DNA of 58,880 nucleotides from Tolypothrix carrinoi HA7290-LM1 (GTDB lineage: Bacteria > Cyanobacteriota > Cyanobacteriia > Cyanobacteriales > Nostocaceae): NCBI GenBank assembly GCA_019358935.1, contig JAHHIK010000049.1, forward strand, positions 1 through 58,880, in the 5' to 3' direction. The position numbers and the translations under genes were made by a program. Below, one piece after another: positions 54,523 through 58,880 of the stretch; position 1 is the first letter of the stretch; each line of letters starts with the position of its first letter. A model generated the notes under the pieces. It was not told where the DNA came from. It searched no databases and was given only the letters and a program-made list of their open reading frames with translations.

Positions 54523-54830
54523 TGACCAAAAAGGGTGTGGGGTGTGGGGGAGCCAGTGCCGTGCGTATTTTCCCCCCGTTGAGGCATCTGGCGTTGTGGG
54601 GTGTGGGGTTGCAGGTTTAGAACGTTCTCCCACACCCAACAGCGTCCTTGCCCCTATTTTTAAATATGGAAAATATTAAAGAAGATTTTACCAGACACGT
54701 AGTGGGATAAAATCAGCGCGGAGCCGGAGCCGCGGAGCCTCCGGTCCATGTTTGAAACCCCTGATTTTAATTATGGGGTTCCTACACCCTACCCCCTACC
54801 CCCTACACCCTATACCCTCTTCATGGTGAT
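54523..54830. mobile_element. MITE-like element (GGGTGTG/TACACCC ends) with nested small repeats
   Basis: Inverted heptamer ends; the internal GGAGCCAGTGCCGTGCG..TTGAGGCATCTGGCGT unit recurs near 58820. Confidence 0.6.
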
Positions 54831-55212: not shown

Positions 55213-55550
55213 ATGACTGCAAAACCTACTGTATTAGTTGTTGGTTCTACCGGGATGCTCGGTGCTAAAATTATTTCTGCCCTGCTCGACAAAAAAACTA
55301 CCAACGTCAAAGCAATGGTGCGCCCTAACAGCGACAGCGATACAGAGAATCGCGAAAAAATTGAACAGATGAAAGCGAAGGGTGCAACAATTGTAGAAGG
55401 CGACTTGATGAAACCGGAAACACTCCTTCAAGTTTGTGAAGGTGTAGACGTGGTTGTTTCTGCCGTGGGCAACAATCAAGTAACTGTACCAGGGCAGAAA
55501 AATTTAATTGATGCAGCTAAACAGCAAGGTGTCAAGCGGTTTATTCCTTC
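55213..55550 (+). pseudogene. 5' part of an NmrA/isoflavone-reductase-like oxidoreductase, interrupted after ...KRFIPS
   Basis: VLVVGSTGMLG Rossmann motif, GVDVVVSAVG, NLIDAAK..GVKRFIPS then an abrupt stop; the family normally continues (D/E)(Y/F) to about 300 aa. Confidence 0.88.
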
Positions 55551-56758
55551 ACTCTAGATAAATCATTTTGACTAACTCTTTAAATAGTAGCTTTGCAGAA
55601 GAAGGCGGATATGCGCGATCGCACTAATCGCACTCCTCGACCGGCAGCTTTTTCAGCGTCCAACTGAGCTTTAAGCGTTGCACCGATCTCATTATCAAGG
55701 CGGCAGCGCTTAATCTCAATGCGAGTGAAAACCCACTTGCCTCTGGCGATACGGCACAAATCAGAACCACCGACAATTTTAATTTTACTTTTATCACCAG
55801 ACGCTTCCAGGGACGGTGCAAGCTAAGCGAGACTTCTGAAACCGGCGTAACGAAAGGTAGCGTTTAGTTGGCTTTCCAGACTTTCGACTAAGAGCGAATC
55901 CTGACTTCTGGCTTACCGTCAGCGCCAAAGTAATTTTCCACCGGGTAAATTTGGGAGAGGATGATTGACTCAAGCCGTATGCCGAAACCAAAAGCCTTAA
56001 AAACCTGGCGGTAAGCGGTGAACTTTAAGTCAGTCAAAAGTTGCTGTAATTCCACTTCAATGCTGTATTCCTCTCGCTGCAAGTCACACAACCGTTTTGC
56101 GATCTGGTCGAACCGTGCTAGTGATGCCCAATCCGACAGAGCGATCGCGCAAACCGTCATATCGCTTGGATGAGCGTTCGCCACACAACCATCCCCACAG
56201 CAGCGGTACATCACCATCAATTGTCCGGCGGGATTTTATATGCGCTACCTCTCTTAACTGCCACGCCAAGTCAGTAGCGCAACCGATTGATGATTGGCGA
56301 CTGTACCCGGTTGAGGTGAGCAAGCCGCAGCACCAGTTCCCGGATGCGGGTTGTGGTGAAGTCCCGAATCTGGACAAAGCGCTTGGGGGAATCGCAGTAA
56401 TCAAAGTAGTAGCACGCCAGGGCTAGAGCATCGGCATCATCATCTTTATCCGGTAAACTTAACTGGTGTTCCCGGTAATTTCTCAACTCTTTGTGTCCCA
56501 CGAGCCTGATTTCGATTTCGGCACGGGCTAAATGTGTACCCCTTCATACGCGAGTAATTTACACCAGTCGGTTCCATAATTGCAATATCCGGTTTTAGCG
56601 CCAACAGTGCTTTTATGCCCTCACTGTTGGCGCTAAACAACATAAACGGACATTCGGGCGGAAAATTGACGTGGTTCCGAGGGCTTATTTTCAAGCAAGC
56701 AGGCGGAAACTGAGGACTTGCTGACATCAAGTCCCAAAATTCTTTTATTTTGTTGCAT
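55549..56758 (-). pseudogene. IS110-family (DEDD/Piv-like) recombinase with several frameshifts and stops
   Basis: Reconstructed across frames: MQQNKRILGLDVSK, IMEPTG, KDDDADA (DEDD tetrad), APSLEASGD (catalytic Ser motif), C-terminus AKLLFKELVKMIYLE* ending at TGA 55551-55549. Confidence 0.9.
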
Positions 56759-56796
56759 TGGGTGTGGTTGTTGGTTATTAATTAGTCCCGTATAAA

Positions 56797-56965
56797 AGCC
56801 TATGAATCACCCAAAGGCGCAAATAGCCTAGTTCACTCTCAAGGCTGTGTCGGAGTTGGCGCTCTGACACTACGAGGGGAAACTGTAGAAAGTGCAGTAA
56901 CCGAGCTTATGAAGGAATAAAAGCGATTATGCTTGATTCTGACTAAAAACCCTAAGTTACTGCAC
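56797..56965 (-). ncRNA. Putative bridge RNA: target-binding loop 56892-56965, donor-binding loop 56797-56846 (5' end may extend to about 57050)
   Basis: Two parallel internal loops, [guide-GAA]-N2-hairpin-[guide-UUC]-AU; exact 12-nt and 8-nt matches to the junction at 55540-55555; upstream of and co-directional with the recombinase. Confidence 0.82.
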
Positions 56966-57043
56966 GTTATCACAGGCGCTCTTATTTGGACGATTAGCCG
57001 CGACTCCCCAACGTGGGGGAGCAAGAATCTAAAGAATCTGAAT

Positions 57044-57081
57044 AAAGCCGTCCCCGCCTTTTGCGGTAGGGACGGCTTTTT
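57044..57081. terminator. Strong hairpin, possibly a bidirectional terminator
   Basis: AAAGCCGTCCC...GGGACGGCTTTTT. Confidence 0.65.
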
Positions 57082-57142
57082 AATGGGTGCGGTCACTGTG
57101 AGGAGTGCGATCGCACTCCAAAGCAATATATCAACCAAAATT

Positions 57143-57394
57143 ATGGAACCAAGCCAGGAGATAGCATTTATTGAAGCTGCCAAGGTCAGCAAACTAGCCC
57201 AAGCAACCGAACAAGCGGCAGTTGAGCTAACTGAATTTATCGATTTCGTCCAGTATCACAACCCGGAAGTCGATAGAGCCACCGCTACAATGACGACTGC
57301 GTTTTGCTTGCACAATCTGCGTACTGCTTTTCTAGAGGAACCAGAGATGATGCAGGAGTTGAGCGCGATCGCACGCTCGTTTTCTCAAGGATAA
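57143..57394 (+). CDS. Small hypothetical cargo protein
   Basis: 83-aa helical ORF from MEPSQEIA, followed by a hairpin at 57401-57440. Confidence 0.6.
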   Translation: MEPSQEIAFIEAAKVSKLAQATEQAAVELTEFIDFVQYHNPEVDRATATMTTAFCLHNLRTAFLEEPEMMQELSAIARSFSQG

Positions 57395-57539
57395 AAAATT
57401 AAAAAGCCTCCCAGAACTTTAGCAAAGACGGGCGGCTTTTATCAAGTTGATTGAACTACAGGTACTTACGTATCTGCTTAATCGGTTCACAAACTTCCAA
57501 TCATTTCAATCAAACTTTTGTAATTATGCTTTTGTAATT

Positions 57540-58542
57540 ATGCCACAAAATCAATTAATCTCTTTCCCCAATCGTGAAAATAAAGTTTCAGTAAAGTACA
57601 ACAAACCTCATTGCATTATCCCTATATCAGACATTACATGGGTAACGCAACAAGTAAAAGCAGTTCAAACATTGTGGAATGAATGTTGGGTATCAGACCC
57701 ATTTGGCAGTCGATGGGAAAAGCTGTCAACTAACCTCACAGAAACAGCATTTAGGTTAGCTAGAAAGATTTTATACACAGCTGGACTATTTGAATTTAAG
57801 CGCGATACCTGCATACATGACAGTCGAAAAACAGCAGGCTGGTTAGTAATTAATCTTCATGGCGCTAGAAGAATTAAAGACTTTTGGCATCGCGAAGAAG
57901 CTGAAATTATATCCGACACAAACACGGCGATATCCGACATAAACACGGCGATATCCGACACAAACACGGCGATATCCGACACAAACACGGCGATATCCGA
58001 CACAAACACGGCGATATCCGACACAAAATCAACGGTGTTTCTGTCCGAAACCCCTGAATTATCAAGGCATAAAGAGCCTCTCAGTAGTATTTCAATATCT
58101 TCTTCCGGAACTTCTTTGAGAAGTTCCTGAAGAAGAAGTACCCACTCGGCACGAGCTTTTAGAGAAAGCTCGTGCTCGTGGGGGAAAGATAGGTGAGAAG
58201 TTAGCCAAAATTCTAGAAACTTGCTTTAAACACGCAGACGGGTGGACTCCAACTATGAAACAGACCATTTCTGACATCTTTCATCACAGATACAGATGGA
58301 AAATTGACGACAGGCGGCTTGAATTAGTCTCTAACCTTGACGAATTCTCTCTACAAACATTTCTCTCCAGATTTAAATTTGTCTGGTCAGACCAGGGTAT
58401 GAGCGCCCCTAGGACTTTTGATCGGGCAATGCGTGACTTAACAGAAAACCGCTTTATTGGAGGAGATATCAAACTGCAAATACAAAGTTTTCTGCTTGAC
58501 TTATCGCAACCTCAAGAAAAGCAAGTGGCTTTTAATAGCTGA
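57540..58542 (+). pseudogene. Possible replication-initiator-like protein, frameshifted near 58090-58130
   Basis: wHTH-like N-terminus (LTETAFRLARKILYTAGLFEF), repeat linker, open frame continuing into the 58255-58542 ORF; function inferred from architecture only. Confidence 0.45.
57909..58027 (+). repeat. About 5.6 x 21-bp tandem repeat ATATCCGACACAAACACGGCG
   Basis: Units at 57909, 57930, 57951, 57972, 57993 and 58014 (partial). Confidence 0.95.
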
Positions 58543-58610
58543 TTCTGCCTCGTAAAGAAAAAACCGCCACTCGCAATGGCGGCTGATTAAAAAACCTCGA
58601 ATTATAAATT

Positions 58611-58880
58611 ATGCATCAACCAAAGCAATTGCAGCTGTTTGACTTTCCTACTCAGCCTCAAATTAAGGTAATTCACGATCCTTACTGGGATGAACTGGAG
58701 GCACAAGCCGATGATATTGTTGAACAGGCATTTTTAAGCATCAATGCCGAGGATGAAATTTTCGACGTTGACCAAGCCCCGAGTCTCGCGGGGTGTGGAA
58801 GAAGGGTGTGGGGTGTGGGGGAGCCAGTGCCGTGCGGGGGTGGAGTCCTGTTGAGGCATCTGGCGTTGTCGGGTGTGGAA
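58611..58880 (+). CDS. Hypothetical cargo protein, hit by a repeat element near 58790 and cut by the window edge
   Basis: MHQPKQLQLFDF...HDPYWDELE, then GGGTGTGG repeats. Confidence 0.5.
   Translation, partial: MHQPKQLQLFDFPTQPQIKVIHDPYWDELEAQADDIVEQAFLSINAEDEIFDVDQAPSLAGCGRRVWGVGEPVPCGGGVLLRHLALSGVE

Follow-up and report, generated by a model that had tools for sequence, protein, structure and literature searches.

Introduction

The bridge RNA and recombinase of IS621, which belongs to the IS110 group within the IS110 family, were reportedly the subject of Hiraizumi et al. 2024. Type I hammerhead ribozymes have a core comprising CUGANGA and GAAA (C3-A9, G12-A14), the A15.1-U16.1 pair and H17, arranged around a three-way junction. 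According to the available part of Durrant et al. 2024 (PMC11208160), the right donor guide of IS621 pairs discontiguously. The accessible portion of a survey (10.64898/2026.10.21.760802) lists 32,190 bridge RNAs and 86 covariance models, and documents how widely IS110 bridge RNAs differ in the scaffold and in the lengths of guide and core. Its boundary search reaches no further than 1,000 nt to either side of the recombinase gene, so large elements of the kind described here would probably have been discarded; searches of ~1 kb around this gene miss a lineage in which the left end lies 6-12 kb away. In the same portion, hammerheads and bridge RNAs are handled separately, and a “divergent hammerhead” cluster of 152 loci is left unplaced, no genomic context being given for it.

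We analysed a stretch of 58,880 nucleotides from contig JAHHIK010000049.1 of Tolypothrix carrinoi HA7290-LM1 (hereafter referred to as the window). It is very probable that the locus as a whole is a decayed member of a cyanobacterial IS110 lineage, with its bridge RNA gene at 57001-56797 on the minus strand. Taken alone, this RNA is one more, dead, bridge RNA, when tens of thousands have already been catalogued. In many cyanobacterial families, the bridge RNA has a hammerhead motif fixed at its 5' end.

Results

Layout of the bridge RNA gene

The two-loop RNA, encoded upstream of an IS110-family recombinase gene, is the bridge RNA of an IS110-family element (Table 1), as had been proposed in a first-pass annotation made from the sequence alone; this identity was borne out by the ortholog site, the covariation of the scaffold and the tracking of junctions by guides. 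All the strings quoted in that annotation were found where it had placed them, including an exact 12-nt inverted match (56910-56921 is the reverse complement of 55540-55551) and an 8-nt copy of the core and element end (56832-56839 is identical to 55548-55555). GAA or UUC is present in all four guide segments, and the donor loop contains the string UUUGGGUGAUUC at 56815-56804 (minus strand). Loop order and guide polarity were also as the annotation had described, matching those given for IS621 in the available part of PMC11208160. Window position 57001 aligns with the first base past the predicted hammerhead cleavage site of related loci. The small stem-loop of the leader has the loop sequence GUCCAAA in these relatives.

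Table 1. Positions of the bridge RNA, its guides and the neighbouring features in the window.
Feature	Position	Strand	Basis
NmrA-like gene, 5' fragment of ~112 codons, cut by the insertion	55213..55547	+	ORF; orthologs
Core GAA (TTC on +), right-end junction, recombination crossover site	55548..55550	-	homology stop; both junctions
Right end and IS110-family recombinase pseudogene	55551..56758	-	tblastn of intact paralog P0001
Donor-binding loop, stem AGCCU 56846-56842 / AGGCU 56801-56797	56797..56846	-	stems supported by covariation
Right donor guide UGGG(U)GAUUC	56813-56804	-	pairs with GAA-TCCCCA if one U is bulged
Inner hairpin of donor loop	~56829-56815	-	sequence/structure
Left donor guide AGAGU-GAA	56839-56832	-	matches right-end terminus and core
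Linker, one covariation-supported hairpin (~56870-56847) and 3' strand of a long-range helix to the 5' leader	56847..56891	-	helices 4 and 1
Target-binding loop, outer stem 56965-56947 / 56908-56892	56892..56965	-	guides equal nmrA site; hypervariable in homologs
Outer stem strings of target loop, GUGCAGUAAC / GUUACUGCAC	56965-56956 / 56901-56892	-	sequence read
Right target guide AUUCC-UUC	56918-56911	-	specifies GAA-GGAAT of nmrA site
Hairpin of target loop, AAGC/GCUU	56934-56921	-	sequence read
Left target guide UAGUCA-GAA	56945-56937	-	equals nmrA site TAGTCA-GAA
5' leader of bridge RNA, starting GCGG, with small 5' stem-loop	56966..57001	-	alignment A1
Hammerhead stump, stem III (UCCCCCACGUUGGGGA) and GUC	57002..57020	-	alignments
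Cargo-like DNA, small ORFs of unassigned function, to contig end	57021..58880		between nmrA halves by synteny with L023
Repeated gene and bidirectional terminator	57040-57250		within cargo-like DNA

Insertion site in the nmrA-like gene

The NmrA-like orthologs have open frames of 310-321 aa. An uninterrupted ortholog (L023; 97.9% identical) continues ...TTC|TGACTACTCAG, and its empty site reads TTTATTCC-TTC-TGACTAC, in which the predicted 14-bp site occurs once, with a single TTC; the left guide of the window matches it over 9 nt and the right guide over 8 nt. This allele thus carries exactly the site specified by the guides, and the missing part of the target that the first-pass annotation had rebuilt from the third guide is read in it as TGACTA after TTC, as predicted. 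The 3' half of nmrA was found on another contig (C120, 7864-8491), preceded by ...TGTGGGGA|TTC|, and the far junction is TGTGGGGA-TTC-TGACTAC (C120, 7856-7872). The proposed 3-nt core is upheld: the empty ortholog site has a single TTC, and the insertion has one at each of its junctions (window 55548-55550; C120 7864-7866). Homology among the right-end-bearing copies of the genome ends at 55548 (55546 in one place). The window contig (C49) and C120 are syntenic neighbours in L023, suggesting that they are probably contiguous; the end of C49 and the start of C120 have no overlap, and both break off in a short dispersed repeat.

The far junction differs from the one predicted, TTGGGTGA-TTC-TGACTA, because the right donor guide probably pairs with GAA-TCCCCA through one bulged U; neither the window nor the genome contains the predicted sequence. 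The left end accordingly begins with TCCCCA and not, as a literal reading of this guide would have it, with TCACCCAA, and the junction expected just downstream lies at least 11 kb away in element terms. The literal forms of the far junction, TTGGGTGATTC(TGAC) and GAATCACCCAA, were also sought, but the matches in the window and the genome were the RNA genes themselves only. The sequence TCACCCAAAG beside the right end of L002 is a 10-mer present 42 times in the genome, and was set aside as evidence.

A hammerhead motif directly 5' of the RNA

In 31 of 31 relatives, a type I hammerhead core was identified directly 5' of the RNA (covariance model R1), in the order CUGA(U/C)GA, GAAA, stem III and GUC, flanked by a stem I of CCGC/GCGG. 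The motif in these relatives is likely to be a self-cutting hammerhead ribozyme. Its 17 pairs were formed in 94.1% of cells, and six of the eight pairs of stem III had changed on both sides; stem I changes from CCGC/GCGG to UCGC/GCGA in L074, and stem II is wholly replaced in L050 and L175. Folding gave a three-way junction for five of five sequences, with identical minimum-free-energy and centroid structures. The core is canonical and contained within 80 nt at 20 loci, whereas eight loci with a full core have 46-76 nt (two extra hairpins) between CUGAUGA and stem II, inserts that could impair catalysis, and four have a point change or insertion in the core. Eight loci at first seemed to lack the hammerhead core; this was corrected by the covariance model, which places CCGCCUGAUGA at a more upstream position in them. 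The window retains the last 19 nt of the motif, the CUGAUGA strand, stem II and GAAAC having been deleted; R1 found no match at this stump, where the core is missing. Both the stump in the 5' flank and the pseudogenised state of the element had escaped the first-pass annotation.

The association of the motif with recombinase genes extends beyond these loci. All four R1 matches in the genome of the window precede IS110 recombinase genes and, of the 13 further matches obtained from 151 genomes spread over the class, 12 were followed by an IS110-like recombinase gene on the same strand (25-57% identity). In many loci, an upstream ORF on the same strand ends 0-5 nt before the motif. A search of the available literature found no report linking a hammerhead to IS110 or bridge RNA. 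A search of RNA runs turned up two metatranscriptomes with small shares; their matches were mostly to low-complexity poly-Asp codons and came from other organisms.

The motif might nevertheless have no part in making the 5' end of the bridge RNA: it could act as a non-cleaving handle, end or destabilise the upstream mRNA, or uncouple translation, with the RNA transcribed from a promoter of its own. We consider this unlikely, but it is the strongest of the alternatives. Stem I is only 4 bp long, with no evident tertiary contact between stems I and II, and the Rfam hammerhead models gave no match at E≤0.01 in 10 loci; in a search of 341 nt, the best was Hammerhead_II, at 15.4 bits against a cut-off of 37 and in a permuted alignment. 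Variants with large inserts, or with U4 changed to C, persist, several with perfect right junctions, which suggests activity without a canonical core, and a single metatranscriptome contig with a depth of 2, covering 1225-1327 of L032, runs across the predicted cleavage site, a very weak point in the same direction. Against this, all the core nucleotides and the topology are kept across recombinases that share just 25-57% identity, conservation of the motif exceeds that of the bridge RNA scaffold, stems I and III carry compensatory changes, the predicted cleavage site always falls at the very start of the conserved bridge RNA, and a promoter-like site between the motif and the RNA is absent in the window.

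Decay, size and cargo of the element

The element is a dead, cargo-carrying IS110-family insertion in the nmrA-like gene. From the right-end terminus, ...CTAGAGT (55557-55551), the recombinase pseudogene extends to a start ATG at 56758, and its TGA stop overlaps the core. With the intact paralog (P0001) as the query, tblastn recovered the gene in at least five frame segments with internal stops, and the window copy, with at least five frame changes in this gene, therefore reads as dead. The recombinase has ~400 aa; P0001 matched Pfam DEDD_Tnp_IS110 (PF01548) at 31.5 bits (cut-off 29) and PF02371 at 17.1 bits, under the cut-off of 21.3. Recombinases of the hammerhead-bearing IS110 lineage have diverged to ~25% identity.

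Homology to other copies starts at ~57021, and at least 11 kb of cargo separates the bridge RNA from the left terminus on C120. The flank family of 57021..58880 recurs at C86, C98, C127 and C145; Pfam gave no matches for this segment, which also contains a 21-nt tandem repeat. The cargo consists mostly of ORFs of unassigned function with a small tyrosine recombinase, and no resistance genes. Two complete elements, each on a single contig, have the RNA inside: one of 7,831 bp (match of 6/6 on the left and 4/5 on the right) and one of 12,950 bp (6/6 and 5/5). Their outer junctions match the guides of the inner RNA, from which we conclude that these insertions happened at full size.

An improbable alternative is that the insertion was first compact and that the kilobases were added later by homologous or half-match recombination, in which case the “cargo” would not be mobilised as a unit. 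This would accommodate the unrelated genes found directly upstream of the hammerhead from locus to locus, the sharp homology boundary at its first base and the internal deletion in the window copy, and expanded IS110 loci are described, in the available part of 10.64898/2026.08.14.744561, as growing by progressive additions and half-matches. Many junctions also mismatch the resident guides (10 of 29 on the right and several on the left), from which it follows that copies were shuffled after insertion. The matching outer junctions of the 7.8- and 13.0-kb elements nonetheless argue against later growth, as does the fate of a left terminus placed directly upstream of the hammerhead, a candidate that was rejected: the flanks there mismatch the guides, and no left-target-plus-GAA junction was found upstream of the RNA in 32 of 32 loci (0.15-1.9 kb covered; >1 kb in 27).

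Guide rules and length of the target

The guides specify TAGTCA-GAA-GGAAT in the nmrA-like gene, a 14-bp target (6+3+5). In the 32 RNA-bearing loci, the target guides are hypervariable, over 6 nt ahead of GAA and 5 nt ahead of UUC; both donor guides are essentially invariant in these loci, and every locus with a right end has a terminus identical to the left donor guide, AGAGUGAA. Matches between the right target guide and the flanks were found in 22-25 of 29 loci at positions 1-5 past the core, but at positions 6-10 the count fell to 5-13 of 29. This gives a right target guide of 3+5 nt, and the 10-11 nt assigned to the right guides by the first-pass annotation cannot be maintained; the extra matching bases in the window reflect scaffold plus coincidence. 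Nor does the longer recognition site that it expected materialise, as the whole target is not longer than the IS621 target with an extended guide.

The right flank was as predicted by the guide at five of five positions in 19 of the 29 testable loci, against a mean of 0.74 perfect flanks, with a maximum of 5, in 2000 shuffled pairings. The left flank equalled the left target guide in eight cases: the window (on C120) and seven others, five of these for six guides in the genomes of two relatives and two in the three Nostoc genomes tried. The covariation of guides and junctions in homologs, a check named beforehand, was thus observed on both sides. The left junction of L039 was not found among the matches listed (12 of 23 pattern matches). 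A U-to-C change in the right donor guide of Nostoc copies was considered as possible covariation with the left terminus and rejected, because the real Nostoc termini are TCCCCA, with no compensatory change. The pattern used for Nostoc left termini, GAATCCCCGNNNG, caught an unrelated palindromic dispersed repeat. These loci constitute a natural data set for the guide rules of a 3-nt core, with a target of 6+3+5 and donor guides of 5+3 and 3+6 with a bulge.

It is very improbable, given these rules, that the window contains a compact and possibly active IS110 element with right guides of 10-11 nt, a more specific site and a nearby far junction. The region of the right target guide does match the nmrA flank over 11-12 nt, and the donor segment, read literally, has a clean 11-mer as its complement. 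However, the agreement between guides and flanks is at background past 5 nt, the predicted far junction is missing, the real left terminus, TCCCCA, is on a different contig, the recombinase gene is broken by its frame changes, and the complete relatives are 7.8 and 13.0 kb long.

Conservation of the scaffold

For the structure of the RNA, we used 32 RNA-bearing loci of the 51 related loci retrieved. The RNAalifold consensus and pair counts gave 39 pairs, formed in 97.4% of cells, with two stem-loops, each containing an internal loop, and the target loop first. Changes on both sides were observed for 19 of the 39 pairs, and none of 500 shuffles did as well. Of the two extra hairpins between the loops in the first-pass annotation, one is retained (helix 4, the linker hairpin; both-side changes in seven of seven pairs), whereas a long-range helix with the 5' leader accounts better for the other (helix 1; two of three pairs). 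Searches with Rfam on the right 3.9 kb of the window, 10 loci and the 341-nt stretch gave no bridge RNA or hammerhead family at threshold.

There is next to no probability that the complementarity arose by chance, with the region being no more than a structured 5' UTR for the recombinase gene: we estimate that a window of 58.9 kb should contain ~7 exact inverted matches of 12 nt spaced within 2 kb, but those observed rise above chance because they sit in the correct register of a structure covarying in 32 homologs, because the third guide foretold the missing target half, with six unseen ortholog bases correctly predicted, and because the relatives obey the same guide rule on the right (19 of 29 perfect 5-nt matches) and on the left (eight matches).

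Discussion

Proposed mechanism

In the target loop, UAGUCA-GAA is the same as the top strand to the left of, and including, the core, and would therefore pair with the bottom strand; together, the target guides would specify the site in the nmrA-like gene. The donor loop, with AGAGU-GAA (right-end terminus plus core) and UGGG(U)GAUUC (core plus TCCCCA), would recognise the excised element through its joined ends. Strand exchange by the recombinase would then take place at GAA, leaving GAA at both junctions. A large element probably entered nmrA, its right end, recombinase gene and bridge RNA now lying in the window and its left terminus on C120, and a deletion has taken the 5' two-thirds of the hammerhead motif from the window copy. 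In living copies, the bridge RNA would be co-transcribed with the upstream cargo gene, and the type I hammerhead, cutting after GUC, would make the 5' end of the RNA, GCGG....

We tentatively propose, at somewhat less than an even chance, that a cyanobacterial IS110 lineage may have exchanged the end-joined promoter of classical IS110 elements for a bridge RNA freed by a minimal hammerhead at the 3' end of a cargo transcript, the recombinase and RNA module thereby serving to integrate plasmid- or virus-like elements of 8-13 kb. If the motif cleaves, this would explain how a guide RNA is made inside a long element without an end-joining promoter, and would provide a natural precedent for the ribozyme-flanked guide cassettes of engineers. 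If true, the proposal would provide the first natural case of a DNA recombinase whose guide RNA is matured by a ribozyme of its own.

Comparison with known systems

With IS621, as far as it is described in the available part of PMC11208160, the locus shares the position of the RNA gene, in the left end and upstream of the gene for a DEDD/Tnp recombinase, and the order of a 5' stem-loop, a target-binding loop and a donor-binding loop. In both systems, the top-strand pairing of the 3' side is the shorter one, the core lies within all four pairings, the right donor guide is discontiguous and the left target guide is 9 nt long. By comparison with the same part of that description, the core here is GAA (3 nt) rather than CT, the right target guide is 3+5 nt rather than 4 nt, extendable to 7, and there is an extra hairpin between the loops. 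The hammerhead motif directly 5' of the RNA is a further difference, as is a left terminus kilobases upstream of the RNA, so a promoter formed by joined ends cannot directly drive it. The recombinase also differs, having ~400 aa and matching Pfam weakly (PF01548, 31.5 bits; PF02371, below cut-off).

The expanded IS110 elements of Hu et al. 2026 (10.64898/2026.08.14.744561), according to the accessible portion of that text, are likewise far above 1.5 kb with multi-gene cargo, and have outer boundaries matching the guides of the bridge RNA, half-matches and partial derivatives. That portion mentions neither cyanobacteria, ribozymes nor promoters, and the cargo here consists mostly of unassigned ORFs with a small tyrosine recombinase rather than resistance genes. 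The “divergent hammerhead” cluster of 152 loci in the available part of 10.64898/2026.10.21.760802 may correspond to the present motif.

The motif falls below every threshold of the Rfam hammerheads (RF00163 and relatives), with a stem I of 4 bp and no visible loop-loop contact. It nevertheless resembles type I hammerheads in CUGANGA, GAAA, the A-U closing pair of stem III and the C at the cleavage site, and in its three helices, with stem I open, stems II and III capped, and compensatory changes. It differs from them in the two extra hairpins that one subgroup carries between A9 and stem II, and in its position, which is fixed directly 5' of a guide RNA.

Bridge RNA and conservation of its structure

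A two-loop RNA lies 5' of the IS110-type recombinase reading frame of the window. The first-pass annotation had described the layout of both loops and the identities between the RNA and the junction at 55540-55555; all the elements were present as described, on the minus strand upstream of the recombinase frame, and the identities were exact. A 12-nt inverted match alone is unremarkable in 59 kb, and it is the tests reported below that make the case. Both loop stems were recovered by single-sequence folding (z = -2.85 versus shuffled sequences). The initial observation as a whole is confirmed; its interpretation held for the kind of RNA, but not for guide length, far junction or element size.

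Features of the bridge RNA, its element and related loci
Feature	Location	Strand	Sequence or remark
Two-loop RNA	window 57001-56797	minus	
Target loop, outer stem		minus	GUGCAGUAAC/GUUACUGCAC
Target loop, left guide	window 56945-56937	minus	UAGUCA-GAA
Target loop, small hairpin		minus	AAGC/GCUU
Target loop, right guide	window 56918-56911	minus	AUUCC-UUC
Donor loop, stem		minus	AGCCU/AGGCU
Donor loop, left guide	window 56839-56832	minus	AGAGU-GAA
Donor loop, segment after hairpin	window 56815-56804	minus	UUUGGGUGAUUC
Stem III and GUC of candidate hammerhead	window 57020-57002		
Small-gene region	window 57040-57250		ATG at 57143; GC-rich bidirectional terminator-like hairpin 57046-57083
ORF with tandem units	window 57447-58130		six 21-nt units, GACACAAACACGGCGATATCC-like, 57886-58020
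G-rich dispersed repeat	window 58790-58880, 54528-54606; start of C120; many other sites		GGGGTGTGGGGGAGCC...
3' half of nmrA	C120 7864-8491		
Doubled left terminus	C120 7797-7866 (L082); also C40, C145, C21, C45 (L083-L087)		
Complete element L104	one contig		7,831 bp; left 6/6, right 4/5
Complete element L176	one contig		12,950 bp; left 6/6, right 5/5
Short derivatives	C33 4520-about 4830; C45 23147-23661; C21 45805-47560; C145 5033-6433		
Cargo ORFs	L176 5751-6332; L082 880-1278 and 4419-5999		

The genome of the window contains three further near-full copies, about 80% identical, and many fragments. Of these three copies, L003 has an intact gene (about 399 aa), which matches Pfam DEDD_Tnp_IS110. 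The species-representative genomes of Tolypothrix, Scytonema, Nostoc, Pelatocladus, Plectonema and others yielded 51 related loci. In an alignment of the 32 loci carrying the bridge RNA, the scaffold was conserved. Hypervariability was confined to exactly two segments, the 6 nt preceding GAA and the 5 nt preceding UUC, and the two segments of the donor loop were essentially invariant. The consensus structure comprised 39 pairs in six helices, with 97.4% of cells paired and changes on both sides in 19 of the 39 pairs, and none of 500 shuffles reached any of these measures. Of the two extra hairpins initially proposed between the loops, one was strongly supported (7/7 pairs); for the other, long-range pairing with the 5' leader is the better description.

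The nmrA target site

The nmrA-like ORF of the window ends at the junction. An uninterrupted ortholog (97.9% identical, 310-aa open frame) is present in a genome of the same genus and reads ...CGGTTTATTCC-TTC-TGACTACTCAG at this position. TGACTA, which had been predicted from the third guide and is missing from the window, was found in this ortholog, and the site is as the left target guide predicted. The 3' half of nmrA lies on another contig of the same genome (C120), preceded by ...CATTCATGTGGGGA-TTC. TTC/GAA thus occurs once in the empty site and is present at both junctions, indicating a 3-nt core, as the first-pass annotation had proposed. In the relative with this ortholog, the locus is collinear with the window's contig (C49) on one side and with C120 on the other. 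The insertion takes in window 55551-58880 and, at the least, C120 1-7863, some 11 kb or more in all. As each contig terminates in a short dispersed repeat, the contiguity of C49 and C120 can only be inferred, from synteny with this relative. The assembly probably broke because of the G-rich repeat present at both contig ends.

Target guides and insertion junctions

Every copy having a right end terminates in (C/T)TAGAGTGAA. Guides and junctions covaried among homologues: of the 29 loci that could be tested, 19 carried, in the 5 nt after GAA, the exact complement of their own right target guide, versus a mean of 0.74 perfect matches (maximum 5) in 2000 shuffled guide/flank pairings. Agreement per position after the core (n=29) was 25, 24, 25, 22 and 23 for positions 1-5, and 8, 13, 5, 6 and 7 for positions 6-10; the right target guide therefore consists of the core plus 5 nt, rather than the 10-11 nt originally suggested, and the 11-12 nt match in the window includes three to four coincidental bases with the A-rich scaffold.

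The left target guide plus GAA was absent upstream of the RNA in 32/32 loci, within the 0.15-1.9 kb examined. The left terminus, GAA-TCCCCA..., was identified at six places in the window's genome and, in the genomes of two relatives, at ten aligned junctions, the flanks of which match five of the six left target guides known there; the same kind of left junction was found in two of the three Nostoc genomes tried. The left target guide is 6+3 nt long, a seventh base matching once. In both complete elements (L104 and L176), the two outer flanks match the guides of the RNA inside. Apart from one absent G, the right flank of L104 after GAA (TAAAAAAAGC) is complementary to the right target guide and adjoining scaffold; slippage by one base could explain this, as could chance, the site being A-rich. 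Ten right junctions and some left junctions mismatch their guides, showing that copies are reshuffled after insertion. Loci L003 and L004 lie within a duplicated larger unit, and L004 and L002 have guides and a frameshift in common.

Donor guides and element ends

The left donor guide, AGAGUGAA, is the right-end terminus plus the core; in many copies the last base is G, and a G·T wobble would result. Taken literally, the right donor guide calls for TCACCCAA, as the first-pass annotation had expected at the far junction, and this proved wrong, the true left terminus being TCCCCA. With one U bulged, UGGG(U)GAUUC would pair with GAA-TCCCCA over nine bases. The corresponding right donor guide of IS621 pairs discontiguously, according to the available text of Durrant et al. 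(PMC11208160). At the right junction of L002 (contig C127), TCACCCAAAG, the literal 10-nt complement of the right donor guide, starts five bases after the core; this may be due to chance, the 10-mer having 42 copies in the genome. The left terminus is doubled in the window's genome (GAA-TCCCCACATGAATGATAAGGCGATCGC...TATAAT...CTTAT-GAA-TCCCCA...), the second GAA-TCCCCA, 67 nt inside, corresponding to the terminus of relatives. This arrangement may be a half-match recombination product or a small promoter-bearing insert.

A candidate hammerhead motif

Every relative has a conserved block starting some 55-60 nt ahead of the RNA, of the form (A)CCGC-CUGA(U/C)GA-hairpin-GAAAC-hairpin-GUC; directly after it the RNA starts, with GCGG.... 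The block has the standard core consensus of a type I hammerhead. Stem III displayed heavy covariation (6/8 pairs) and an invariant A-U closing pair (23/23), stem I had one double change and stem II was wholly replaced in some loci. All five examples folded as a three-way junction, and their minimum-free-energy and centroid structures coincided. Against a hammerhead, stem I is only 4 bp long and four loci have core changes; no Rfam model reached threshold for the motif. CUGAUGA, apparently absent from eight loci, is present further upstream, before two small hairpins inserted ahead of stem II. In Nostoc loci L037-L043, L048 and L073, 46-76 extra bases separate the CUGAUGA strand from stem II, the core being intact; they form two small hairpins, one built on a GCGATCGC palindrome.

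A covariance model built on 23 sequences detected the motif in 31/31 non-window loci with the RNA. It gave exactly four matches in the window's genome, all upstream of IS110 recombinase genes, a divergent subfamily on contig C102 included. Even sampling of the class gave 151 genomes, 10 of them with matches, and 12 of the 13 matches outside the window's genome were followed by a same-strand recombinase gene 25-57% identical to P0001, the intact paralog of the window's recombinase. Many loci have a same-strand cargo ORF that stops 0-5 nt short of the motif, and three or more unrelated families are represented among these ORFs. The window retains stem III and GUC alone. The divergent subfamily (L175, C102 5000-5400), which has its own candidate hammerhead, carries a differently built bridge RNA with donor guides AGGAGUGAA / UUAGGGUGAUUC.

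State of the window's copy, derivatives and cargo

The recombinase gene of the window has internal stops and is broken into five or more frame segments. Homology to other copies starts at about 57021, upstream of which there is a small gene of a repeated family, with a bidirectional terminator; in two other contigs its distance to the recombinase gene is some 4 kb greater, and the window's copy has thus undergone an internal deletion. No promoter-like site was found before the window's RNA. The copy is dead, a relic keeping a record of its own insertion. The small-gene family is repeated at C86, C98, C127 and C145, and its region weakly resembles Rfam ar14 (28.5 bits versus 58.8). The tandem 21-nt units of the window encode DTNTAIS repeats, within an ORF with no Pfam match.

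Short derivatives in the window's genome, of about 0.3 to 1.8 kb, keep both termini (TCCCCACATGA... and ...CTAGAGTGAA or GAGAGTGAA) but no intact recombinase gene; probably they are non-autonomous and depend on mobilisation in trans. Among the cargo ORFs of related elements, one encodes a small tyrosine recombinase (70.5 bits to Phage_integrase), of which C120 has just a fragment; another product, of 526 aa, weakly resembles phrog_10356, a family of phage virion structural proteins (E 7.5e-9). The remaining cargo ORFs have no assigned function. The units of 8-13 kb may resemble viruses or plasmids.

Comparison with known systems

The window's RNA belongs to the already known class of bridge RNAs, described since 2024 and surveyed in the tens of thousands in a preprint that, in its available text, acknowledges variable guide and core lengths (10.64898/2026.10.21.760802). 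IS110 elements with cargo, of up to about 100 kb, are described in the accessible part of another preprint (10.64898/2026.08.14.744561). No natural hammerhead linked to a bridge RNA or IS110 was found in the literature searched; an unplaced hammerhead cluster, as outlined in the available portion of one preprint, could be the same motif. The family-level coupling of hammerhead and bridge RNA is the part worth testing at the bench.

Complementarity between guides and junctions, duplication of the 3-nt core, covariation of the RNA structure and the large size of the element are shown directly. The arrangement of the loci suggests that the bridge RNA would be transcribed together with the upstream cargo, and that the predicted hammerhead would then free it with a defined 5' end. 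In IS621, the two loops guide the recombinase, which carries out strand exchange at the core, the partners being the target and the joined ends of the circular element, as described in the available text (PMC11208160). The IS621 RNA is driven by a promoter rebuilt across these joined ends. With the left terminus 6-12 kb from the RNA, a joined-end promoter should not be able to drive the RNA of the present family, unlike that of IS621.
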